Numbered from the stretch's first letter, positions 26,057 through 27,713 are shown. The stretch is 32,000 nt of DNA from Glaesserella australis (GCF_003260095.1 NZ_PTPX01000011.1:1-32000), one strand, 5' to 3'. Notes: a model not told the origin generated them from the sequence alone. A program made the numbers and translations.

Positions 26057-26482
26057 TTAATTTAATTTTTCTACACGGTGAACTTCGATGTCTGTTTTGT
26101 TCCAAGATTTATCCACTTCACCATAAAGTTTGACTTCATTGTTTGGGGTGATTTCTTGTCCTACCCACGCTTTGCGTTCAATTTCAACATTGATTTCACC
26201 GCTTGCATCACGGAATAAGAAATCTTCTTTCCCTACTTGTTTAACAATTTTGCCTTGTAAAACAACATATTGGTCATCATTCATTGATGAAACTTCCGTT
26301 ACTTTACTTACCGCTTGATTGCTATTCATATAACCGCCATGTCTAAACTCGCCCTTTTGTTTTACTTGGGTTGTTTGTTGTGGCGCATTAGGATCTTGAA
26401 AACCACCATTTTGGCTATTTGCAAATGCTGATGCGGTTAAGGTTGATAATACTAAAGTTGAGATTAATGTTACTTTTTTCAT
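26057..26482 (-). CDS. ygiW: YgiW/YdeI family OB-fold (BOF) periplasmic stress protein
   Basis: Signal peptide [21 protein letters not shown]. The C-terminal OB-fold region ([30 protein letters not shown]) is typical of YgiW. The start is set at 26482 (GGAG RBS 7 nt upstream) rather than the track start at 26512. Confidence 0.88.
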
Positions 26483-26551
26483 AAATTGCTCCAAGTTAAG
26501 TTTATAAATCAAAGCTATGTTGCTTTGTTGGCGCTTATTAAACTAAATAAA

Positions 26552-26569
26552 TCTTAAGAAAGTCTTAAG
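26552..26569. promoter_or_regulatory. Direct repeat TCTTAAG-N4-TCTTAAG (11-bp period), a candidate QseB/PmrA-type response-regulator box for the ygiW-qseBC promoter
   Basis: Two exact 7-mers at 26552-26558 and 26563-26569, 70-87 bp upstream of the ygiW ATG. PmrA/QseB-family sites are CTTAA(T/G) direct repeats one helical turn apart (from memory). Confidence 0.5.
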
Positions 26570-26680
26570 CCACATTATTTTTTAGATTAAAAAATCTACA
26601 GTCGTTTTCCACTGCAACAAAAATATTCTAACTTATTGTTTTTAATAAAGAAAAAGATAGACGCTACACCTTATTTTTAG

Positions 26681-26758
26681 TTATACACGATCATTATTCC
26701 GATCTATCACATTTTTATCCACAGACAATGGGGATAAAACGATGTGAAATGTGGAAAA
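26681..26758. promoter_or_regulatory. DnaA-box cluster A: TTATACACG(+), TTATCCACA(+), TTATCCCCA(-), TTTTCCACA(-), interleaved with two GATC sites
   Basis: Boxes were compared with the consensus TTATNCACA. 26681-26689 scores 8/9 and 26715-26723 scores 9/9. On the minus strand, 26729-26737 (TGGGGATAA on plus) scores 8/9 and 26750-26758 (TGTGGAAAA on plus) scores 8/9. GATC sites lie at 26689 and 26701. Confidence 0.7.
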
Positions 26759-26845
26759 ATTTAAGAAATCAAACCAAACTTGCCTGACTTATTCTTTTTT
26801 GCCAAGAAATTGAACAGGTAAATGTATAGTTAGCCAGTATCACTT

Positions 26846-26868
26846 CGATCTTTTCAGAAAAAAGATCG
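26846..26868. repeat. Inverted repeat CGATCTTTT-N5-AAAAGATCG carrying two GATC sites
   Basis: Perfect 9-bp arms at 26846-26854 and 26860-26868. A third GATC lies at 26876-26879. Confidence 0.8.
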
Positions 26869-26927
26869 CATATAAGATCTTGTCTATTCCAAGGTTATCC
26901 CACGAGATTTCGCAATCTATTTTCAAC

Positions 26928-26948
26928 TTATCCACAGCTTTATCTACA
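26928..26948 (+). promoter_or_regulatory. DnaA-box cluster B: TTATCCACA then TTATCTACA, 3 bp apart, same orientation
   Basis: 26928-26936 scores 9/9 and 26940-26948 scores 8/9. A weaker TTATCCCAC lies at 26895-26903. The cluster sits about 115-135 bp upstream of the rppH start. Confidence 0.65.
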
Positions 26949-26972
26949 GTTTGTAAAAAAATGCCTAAATCT

Positions 26973-26982
26973 GACCGCTTGT
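26973..26982 (-). repeat. Uptake signal sequence ACAAGCGGTC
   Basis: GACCGCTTGT on the plus strand upstream of rppH. In USS orientation it is followed by AGATTT and then TTTTTTTACAAA. Confidence 0.85.
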
Positions 26983-27062
26983 TGTATCTTGGCGGTTGTT
27001 CTAAACGCCGAAGTATGAAACAATTCTGCCATCTTAAAATTTTGTAAATAAGGCGGTCTAAA

Positions 27063-27713
27063 TTGATCGATTTCGATGGTTACCGCCCGAATGTTGGTAT
27101 CGTCATCTGCAATAAGCAAGGACAAGTTCTCTGGGCAAAACGGTTTGGACAGAACTCTTGGCAATTTCCACAAGGGGGAATTAACGAGAATGAAAACATT
27201 GAATCAGCAATGTACCGTGAGCTTTATGAAGAAGTCGGCTTAACCAAAAAAGATGTACGATTACTTTGGGCATCGAAGTATTGGCTAAAATATAAATTGC
27301 CAAAACGTTTGGTTCGTAATGAGCAAACACACCCAGTCTGCATTGGGCAAAAACAGCGTTGGTTCTTACTACAACTGATTACAGATGAAAGCAAAATTAA
27401 CCTAAAAGCCAGTAAAACACCTGAATTTGATGGCTGGCGTTGGGTGAGCTTTTGGTATCCTGTGCGACAAGTGGTTTCCTTTAAACGAGATGTTTATCGC
27501 AAGGTGATGAAAGAGTTTGCTCAAGTATTAATGGGCGAAATGAAAAAATCAGAACACGAGAAAATGCGAGAAGAACAGCGTGATGTTGCTGTGACTAAAG
27601 AACAAAGAGAACCGAGAGACGCCAAAGAGACAAAGAGCGAAAGGCGAGATTTTCATCAACCTAAACGTGAATTTCGCAAACCTTATCGCACTTTTAAAGG
27701 AAAAAAATCATGA
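27063..27713 (+). CDS. rppH: RNA pyrophosphohydrolase RppH (NudH)
   Basis: The N-terminus [17 protein letters not shown] matches E. coli RppH ([17 protein letters not shown]), which implies a TTG start at 27063. Nudix box [23 protein letters not shown] is present. At 216 aa it carries a Lys/Arg/Glu-rich C-terminal tail that the 176-aa E. coli protein lacks. Confidence 0.93.

Follow-up and report, generated by a model that had tools for sequence, protein, structure and literature searches.

The spacer upstream of rppH in Glaesserella australis as a predicted Pasteurellaceae counterpart of the DARS2 locus, with its complete DnaA-box trio in the distal position

Does the DnaA-box-rich DNA upstream of rppH in Glaesserella australis correspond to the DnaA-reactivating sequence DARS2 of Escherichia coli and, if so, through which of its boxes would it act? 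DARS2 is the main device timing the rise of ATP-DnaA in E. coli and keeps a conserved mid-replichore distance from oriC; DARS1 is about 100 bp long and needs neither IHF nor Fis, and the DnaA residues Gln208 and Leu290 are needed for DARS. To our knowledge, DARS2 has been tested only in E. coli. The DNA analysed here is a 32,000-nucleotide stretch of the G. australis genome (NZ_PTPX01000011.1:1-32000, further referred to as the window), in which an earlier note, made from the sequence alone, had pointed to a candidate DARS2-like element and had stated that no such element was characterised in Pasteurellaceae. The latter agrees with a full-text literature search, which returned no paper tying DARS or DnaA-reactivating sequences to this family; the homologue list of Fujimitsu 2009 lies outside that search. 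Published lists of DARS homologues comprise enterics, Vibrio, Shewanella, Aeromonas, Photorhabdus and Rahnella.

The region in question is an intergenic spacer of 580 bp (31% G+C), flanked by a ygiW-family gene (26057-26482, minus strand) and rppH (27063-27713, plus strand), and NCBIfam bears out both of these gene assignments of the earlier note. The minus-strand neighbours are qseC, qseB and the ygiW-family gene, and the plus-strand ones rppH, lgt and gph (all by NCBIfam); a membrane-protein gene located between rppH and lgt has a Pfam TauE domain and no NCBIfam match. With at most one mismatch allowed, the spacer contains five DnaA boxes, two of them perfect, versus 10 boxes, none perfect, in the other 31.4 kb of the window. 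At the rate calculated from the rest of the window, 0.18 boxes would be expected (Poisson P = 1.5e-6), and dinucleotide shuffles of the spacer (n = 5000) gave a mean of 0.15 boxes and a maximum of 3. A chance origin of the boxes was ruled out by these shuffles together with 608 kb of control DNA.

All six boxes listed in the earlier note were found at their coordinates, and the spacings given there (5 bp and 12 bp, plus 3 bp in the second pair) are correct by sequence. As for box quality, the two perfect boxes and the 8/9 boxes at 26729, 26750 and 26940 stood, but the box at 26681 matches TTATCCACA at only 7/9 positions (8/9 to TTATNCACA). Several features were absent from that note, namely TCTATCACA at 26703-26711, the boxes at 26605-26613 and 26895-26903, an IHF-like site at 26629-26641 and a Fis-like site at 26585-26599. 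In total, at least eight box-like sites fall within 350 bp of the spacer.

The sequences of the MG1655 mutH-rppH spacer and of the DARS1 region served as E. coli references. DARS2 is indeed located in the mutH-rppH spacer, as the earlier note had stated (PMC4245941, PMC4585315), and the spacing of DARS boxes I and II is 5 bp (PMC6868365). The core layout read from E. coli DARS1 and DARS2 is I-5-II-3-III (boxes in Roman numerals, spacings in bp); in DARS1 it appears as TTATCCACT-attcc-TGTGGATAA-cca-TGTGTATTA, with box II inverted. The E. coli mutH-rppH spacer contains two modules of this layout (positions from the rppH start, rppH-sense strand): a proximal one, TTCTTCACA-act-CTATCCACA-gaaaa-GGTGAATAA, at -192 to -158, and a distal one, TCTTACACC-atg-TTATCCACA-gaaag-CTGGGATAA, at -508 to -474. 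The working DARS2 core is the rppH-proximal module, as defined by the deletion primers MutH-9/10 (PMC4585315) and MutH-14/15 (PMC4245941 supplement), and the ‘box VI’ substitution primers of Kasho et al. flank the distal TTATCCACA (PMC4245941 supplement). The distal TTATCCACA...GGGATAA was considered as the DARS2 core of E. coli and ruled out by these deletion and substitution primers and by the DARS1 sequence.

Going out from rppH, the order of elements in E. coli is core, FBS1, IBS1-2, FBS2-3, box V, FBS6 and the ‘right half’ with the distal module. In our scan, the two sites of IBS1-2 came out at -279 and -263, and a match to the Fis consensus at -317; IBS1 lies 99 bp and the FBS about 137 bp from core box II. 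Box V is TGTGGATAA at -377, and the minimal DARS2 (pOA67) stops short of it; the distal unit lies outside this minimal element and is dispensable in plasmid assays, substitution of box VI had no effect, and a plasmid with the box VI unit but without the core caused no over-initiation (PMC4245941). Both double boxes nevertheless give DnaA ChIP-seq peaks in E. coli, the distal one of 213-fold versus 78-fold for the proximal one (PMC11317965, Table 1).

Only one complete DARS-type trio occurs in the G. australis spacer, TCTATCACA-ttt-TTATCCACA-gacaa-TGGGGATAA (26703-26737). It consists of box III' (TCTATCACA, 26703-26711, plus strand), which is weak (7/9 to TTWTNCACA), the perfect box II' (TTATCCACA, 26715-26723, plus strand, 9/9), which follows after 3 bp, and box I' (TTATCCCCA, 26729-26737, minus strand, 8/9), which faces box II' head-to-head at 5 bp. 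Boxes II' and I' thereby obey the DARS rule of opposed boxes I and II at 5 bp, and the weak box III' obeys the rule that box III should run in the same direction as box II at a distance of 3 bp. Judged by sequence, boxes III' and II' correspond to a ‘double DnaA box’ like CTTACACCAtgTTATCCACA of E. coli. The earlier note had assembled its trio differently, including the box at 26750-26758 (TTTTCCACA, minus strand, 8/9), and had described this trio as having the DARS2 geometry. This part of the proposal does not hold: a DARS core is I-5-II-3-III, and the box at 26750 lies 12 bp past box I', which breaks the spacing rule. Among the matches listed, a box at this 12-bp offset was present only in close relatives (L002, L005, L008/L009) and is missing from most of the family. 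The I-5-II-3-III geometry of the complete trio is also that of E. coli DARS1 in the bioD-uvrB spacer, with a box quality of 8, 9, 8 compared to 8, 9, 7 here, but DARS1 occupies another locus and is a cofactor-independent element of about 100 bp.

Nearer to rppH lies a proximal double DnaA box, TTATCCACA-gct-TTATCTACA (26928-26948, plus strand), in which a perfect box (26928-26936) and an 8/9 box (26940-26948) are 3 bp apart. It is followed by no inverted box I, the box-I position scoring 5/9 in the window. Upstream of it, a degenerate box, TTATCCCAC (26895-26903, plus strand, 7/9), has a TTAT that is invariant in eight sequences, and Bibersteinia carries a full TTATCCACA at this place.

The comparison covered at least 80 rppH loci, collected in one scan of species-representative genomes with the window RppH; among the matches listed, 33 loci belonged to Pasteurellaceae, 46 to Enterobacterales (with Plesiomonas) and 1 to Vibrio, and the best of the listed RppH matches was that of Actinobacillus indolicus (84% identity). 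The fixed layout III-3-II-5-I was scored against TTWTNCACA (maximum 27), and no module scoring at least 22/27 was found in 608 kb of flanking DNA. The gene preceding rppH differs between lineages: it is mutH in enterics, Vibrio, Pasteurella testudinis (L024) and Testudinibacter (L026), ygiW in the window and A. indolicus, and lgt in H. paraphrohaemolyticus. Regardless of whether ygiW, mutH, lgt or another gene precedes rppH, the unit remains attached to rppH. A complete distal module is present at -325 to -460 in 29 of the 33 Pasteurellaceae loci among the matches listed, as well as in the window, with box I scoring 6-8/9; this is the conservation of box positions upstream of rppH that the earlier note had suggested looking for by alignment. 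The proximal module scores 8, 8, 8 in 37 enteric, Plesiomonas and Vibrio loci, and the distal one 6-8, 9, 6-8 in most enterics, both among the matches listed. In MAFFT alignments across both orders the distal unit aligns with the distal and the proximal with the proximal one. In the two Pasteurellaceae genera with the ancestral mutH-rppH order, the spacers align unit by unit with those of E. coli, Hafnia and Edwardsiella.

A promoter motif, too, is shared across these loci. The likely rppH promoter of the window (26996-27024, plus strand) consists of a -35 element TTGTTC, a 17-nt spacer and an extended -10 element TGaAACAAT, and is assigned by conservation: TTG and TATGAAACAAT, about 17 nt apart, are invariant or nearly so from E. 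coli to Pasteurellaceae, the E. coli copy being located about 60-45 bp upstream of rppH. We conclude from this pattern that 26996-27024 is probably the rppH promoter. A consensus scan for promoters and terminators yielded three matches versus 2.7 expected, and this promoter was not among them. An Rfam search of 26300-27300 at E <=1 detected no known RNA. Between the proximal double box and the promoter there is an Apl-type uptake signal sequence (USS), ACAAGCGGT (26974-26982, minus strand), whose position is kept in A. indolicus, Nicoletella and Bibersteinia. With 19 copies of the Apl-type USS in the window versus 0.23 expected, the genome belongs to the Apl-USS clade of Pasteurellaceae.

Taken by position, the spacer upstream of rppH, with rppH, lgt and the promoter motif conserved, fits a DARS2 locus: alignments and box maps of the at least 80 rppH loci revealed the same two units in the same orientation and a conserved promoter. 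These comparisons establish orthology between the ygiW-rppH spacer and the mutH-rppH (DARS2) region of E. coli, and the lead given by the earlier note was thus a good one. As Pasteurellaceae belong to the sister order of Enterobacterales, it is no surprise to meet a counterpart of DARS2 there. On the other hand, the trio singled out earlier as the counterpart of the core is not orthologous by position to boxes I-III deleted in the E. coli deltaCore; its partner in the alignment is the box VI unit of E. coli, and the counterpart of the core is the former ‘second pair’ at 26928-26948. The name of DARS2 counterpart thus suits the locus, yet the trio is a different one, so that the mechanism would run through another unit than in E. 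coli. What appears to be new, on the evidence of these alignments, is that the complete trio has switched from the proximal to the distal position and that the canonical core has decayed throughout the family.

The locus shares with E. coli DARS2 its place upstream of rppH, the layout III-3-II-5-inverted I, the rppH promoter motif and, as far as consensus matches go, an IHF-like followed by a Fis-like site on the box-III side (at about 86 and 130 bp here versus about 99 and 137 bp in E. coli). It differs in that the E. coli core is rppH-proximal, whereas here the complete trio is the distal one and the proximal pair has no box I; box V (TGTGGATAA) is also missing and ygiW stands in place of mutH. 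To the E. coli box VI unit, which is strongly bound by DnaA in vivo in that species, the distal trio of the window corresponds by alignment as well as by a GATC over box III', a perfect box II', a 5-bp spacer, an inverted GGGATAA box and an upstream IHF-like site. The two are distinguished by box I', which scores 6/9 in E. coli and 8/9 here, and by the fact that the unit is dispensable in E. coli plasmid assays, whereas here it is the sole unit with the DARS layout.

The loss of box I from the proximal pair is a family trait. A direct pair with 3-bp spacing (8-9/9 for each box) is located at -96 to -194 in all module-bearing Pasteurellaceae but L023, among the matches listed (n = 29), and in the window. 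At the box-I position these family members score 1-6/9, versus 8/9 in the 37 enterobacterial, Plesiomonas and Vibrio loci among the matches listed. In the two genera with the ancestral gene order the pair lies at -194 (L024) and -192 (L026), compared with -192 for the E. coli core, with which it is aligned. According to Supplementary Figure S10A of Kasho et al. (PMC4245941), Aeromonas and Shewanella have a complete proximal core. As Vibrio, and by the same figure Aeromonas and Shewanella, keep this core, loss of the proximal box I is a derived character of Pasteurellaceae. Because box I is missing, the proximal pair cannot build the ADP-releasing head-to-head dimer (PMC6868365); its role is probably limited to DnaA binding, in feedback or in control of rppH.

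This raises the question of whether the whole cluster might act on transcription only, with DnaA dimers on the double boxes tuning the rppH promoter and its divergent neighbour to the replication cycle, with no nucleotide exchange involved. Double boxes with a spacing of 2-3 bp are a general DnaA unit at promoters, e.g. purH, polA and nrdA (PMC11317965), the element always moves with rppH, the proximal pair is located about 50-70 bp upstream of the inferred -35 element, and box I of the canonical core has been lost, all of which would suit such a role. As in the double boxes at DnaA-regulated promoters described by Stringer, Fitzgerald and Wade (2024), the boxes of each pair here are 3 bp apart, an arrangement that is the preferred in vivo target of DnaA; those promoters, however, have no inverted third box and no IHF/Fis layout. 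Moreover, neither double box overlaps the inferred core promoter, and a simple operator leaves unexplained why a head-to-head pair with an invariant 5-bp spacing should stand 280 bp upstream of the promoter, why IHF-like and Fis-like sites should keep fixed distances and why the layout of DARS1 and DARS2 is retained. A purely transcriptional role consequently seems unlikely to us.

Constraint on the distal trio is strict. Its 3-bp and 5-bp spacings are exact in 29 of the 33 Pasteurellaceae loci among the matches listed. In 22 non-redundant Pasteurellaceae sequences, again among the matches listed, the CACA of box III', all of box II' and the G.ATAA of box I' are at least 90% conserved, the flanks reaching 30-50%. 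Box II' scores 9/9 in every module-bearing Pasteurellaceae locus among the matches listed but L006 (8/9). An alignment of eight Actinobacillus-clade sequences gives the same picture of conservation and also marks the boxes at 26681, 26895, 26928 and 26940. The first of these, TTATACACG (26681-26689, plus strand; 8/9 to TTATNCACA, 7/9 to TTATCCACA), has alignment positions T42, T43, C47, A48 and C49 invariant in those eight sequences, and column conservation shows that GTTAT is kept at its offset family-wide.

Upstream of the trio, the IHF-like site TAACTTATTGTTT (26629-26641, plus strand; one mismatch to YAANNNNTTGATW) lies 86 bp and the Fis-like site GATTAAAAAATCTAC (26585-26599, plus strand; one mismatch to GNNYANNNNNTRNNC) 130 bp from box II'. 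There is no exact Fis consensus in the 580-bp spacer, and IHF-like matches occur there only with one mismatch. As both window sites carry a mismatch, reading them as IHF and Fis sites leans on their conservation across species. Of 30 module-bearing sequences among the matches listed, 16 have an IHF-like consensus match with 0-1 mismatch upstream of box II', at a distance of 86 bp or, in some loci, of 88, 96 or 97 bp; they come from deep branches whose flanks can no longer be aligned. The site has the strand and the side of E. coli IBS1. The Fis-type sequence GnTTAAAAAATAnnC, a degenerate consensus, occurs exactly at 130 or 152-163 bp upstream in 15 Pasteurellaceae loci among the matches listed. 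On the far side of the IHF-like site there is a further DnaA-box-like sequence, TTTTCCACT (26605-26613, plus strand, 8/9 to TTWTNCACA), and the Actinobacillus-clade loci L003, L004, L006, L007 and L008 have a box scoring at least 8 at 98-112 bp upstream of box II'. Loci of the H. parainfluenzae group (L010-L019) have no IHF-like site at the usual offset and carry instead two inverted TGTGAATAA boxes, which precede distal box II by 110 and 128 bp.

A Fis-type motif, GATTAAAAAA(C/T)AnAC, bounds the conserved non-coding block on the mutH side in both enterics and Pasteurellaceae. In E. coli it reads GATTAAAAAACAAAC, at about -660 from rppH and just ahead of the mutH start, outside the studied 455-bp DARS2 fragment; the window copy is that at 26585-26599. 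It is not merely a part of the mutH leader, as it is kept where mutH has been replaced. The distal (box VI) unit of E. coli and other enterics (L031-L081) also has its own conserved IHF-like site, TAATAGCATGATT, 109 bp upstream, which in E. coli is CAATTCTCTGATT (region -605 to -474). With this site, the two units of DARS2 look like tandem copies of one arrangement, i.e. Fis-like, IHF-like, III-3-II-5-I. A direct repeat within the window spacer (26616-26653 and 26772-26809; 38 nt, 71% identity, 156 bp apart) takes in the IHF-like site, its second and degenerate copy falling between the two units. This repeat is a faint hint of an old duplication, although chance in AT-rich DNA may account for it as well, and as proof that the units arose by duplication it was rejected as too weak.

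With an IHF-like site situated between the same-direction boxes at 26605 and 26681, and at least eight box-like sites in 350 bp, the cluster could also be seen as a sink of the datA type, which would titrate DnaA or, together with IHF, promote ATP hydrolysis instead of reactivation. Like the window locus, datA is a non-coding cluster of DnaA boxes with an IHF site, and its boxes are arranged around an IBS (PMC5742627). However, the locus is orthologous to DARS2 and not to datA, with which it is not syntenic, and conservation is highest at the head-to-head pair, a DARS hallmark foreign to datA. The biochemical output of datA is the opposite one and relies on head-to-tail oligomers of ATP-DnaA, which also speaks against this reading, and we hold a datA-like function to be very unlikely.

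The positions of GATC sites allow a further comparison. The 580-bp spacer contains five of them, a modest density, with three (26847, 26864 and 26876) clustered at 26847-26879 between the proximal and distal units, and alignment places GATC sites at similar offsets in related loci. Of the remaining two, the site at 26689-26692 overlaps the 3' end of the 26681-26689 box and that at 26701-26704 the 5' edge of box III', where the window clade reads CGATCTATCACA and E. coli GGATCTTACACC (-510). Such placement may permit Dam/SeqA control of DnaA access once the fork has passed. The DnaA boxes and the IHF-like site, taken with the GATC sites, the AT richness, the divergent genes and a minimum of the cumulative GC skew near 27 kb, might suggest a chromosomal replication origin. 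Yet the spacer has no tandem AT-rich 13-mers or DUE-like repeats, GATC sites number only five in 580 bp, the skew tracks gene orientation, which is mixed across the window, and E. coli and Vibrio, whose oriC lies at another place, carry the same unit ahead of rppH. The oriC of H. influenzae is located close to gidA and a long way from rppH. The missing DUE repeats and the orthology to non-origin DNA of E. coli ruled out this reading, for which we see next to no likelihood.

On balance, we lean towards the interpretation that the spacer is the DARS2 locus of Pasteurellaceae and that DnaA would be reactivated there through the distal unit, with the aid of IHF and possibly Fis, the proximal pair being auxiliary. 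Reactivation through the distal unit is best supported because only this unit has the DARS layout and the proximal pair is devoid of box I. Under such a mechanism, both double-box units would load DnaA dimers, and ADP-DnaA would sit head-to-tail on boxes II' and III' and head-to-head on box I'. The head-to-head AAA+ contact would loosen ADP, so that apo-DnaA leaves and rebinds ATP. Bending by IHF, possibly assisted by Fis, would fold the 26605 box and other upstream DNA back onto the core and thereby stimulate the reaction, and the pair at 26928-26948 would represent a decayed counterpart of the E. coli core.

What weighs most against this interpretation is the lack of DARS activity of the orthologous E. 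coli unit on plasmids, though its box I' is weaker than in Pasteurellaceae. Box III' is weak, the IHF-like and Fis-like sites each have one mismatch and the H. parainfluenzae group does without the IHF-like site, which also count against reactivation through the distal unit, as do four module-less loci. These four Pasteurellaceae loci among the matches listed (L021, L022, L029 and L032), from Aggregatibacter actinomycetemcomitans, [Haemophilus] felis, Volucribacter and Gallibacterium, contain no module within 8.5 kb, the fetched loci extending at most about 4 kb to each side of rppH. The same holds for the fetched loci of Morganellaceae and Arsenophonus (L046, L049, L050, L063, L069, L072, L074, L075, L078 and L080), in which mutH is not upstream of rppH. 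In the module-less loci the element has been either lost or relocated.

How reactivation might have come to depend on the distal unit can be proposed only tentatively. It is possible, though doubtful, that the canonical core decayed in Pasteurellaceae, box I having been lost in every sampled lineage, and that reactivation moved to the distal unit. If this is true, the box VI unit of E. coli, where DnaA ChIP-seq peaks most strongly within DARS2 and which is preceded by IHF-like and Fis-like sites of its own, would be a second, so far unrecognised DARS-type module, and DARS2 would have arisen as a tandem pair of modules whose roles were split differently in two sister orders. The locus also constitutes a natural experiment, in which a proven core has been deprived of its essential inverted box and a unit dispensable in E. 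coli is kept under strict constraint. It bears on the question of which DARS2 features are required, as well as on the unexplained distal DnaA peak in E. coli. A family-wide counterpart, shared by pathogens of the genera Haemophilus, Actinobacillus, Pasteurella and Glaesserella, would extend the DnaA cycle past the enteric and Vibrio models.
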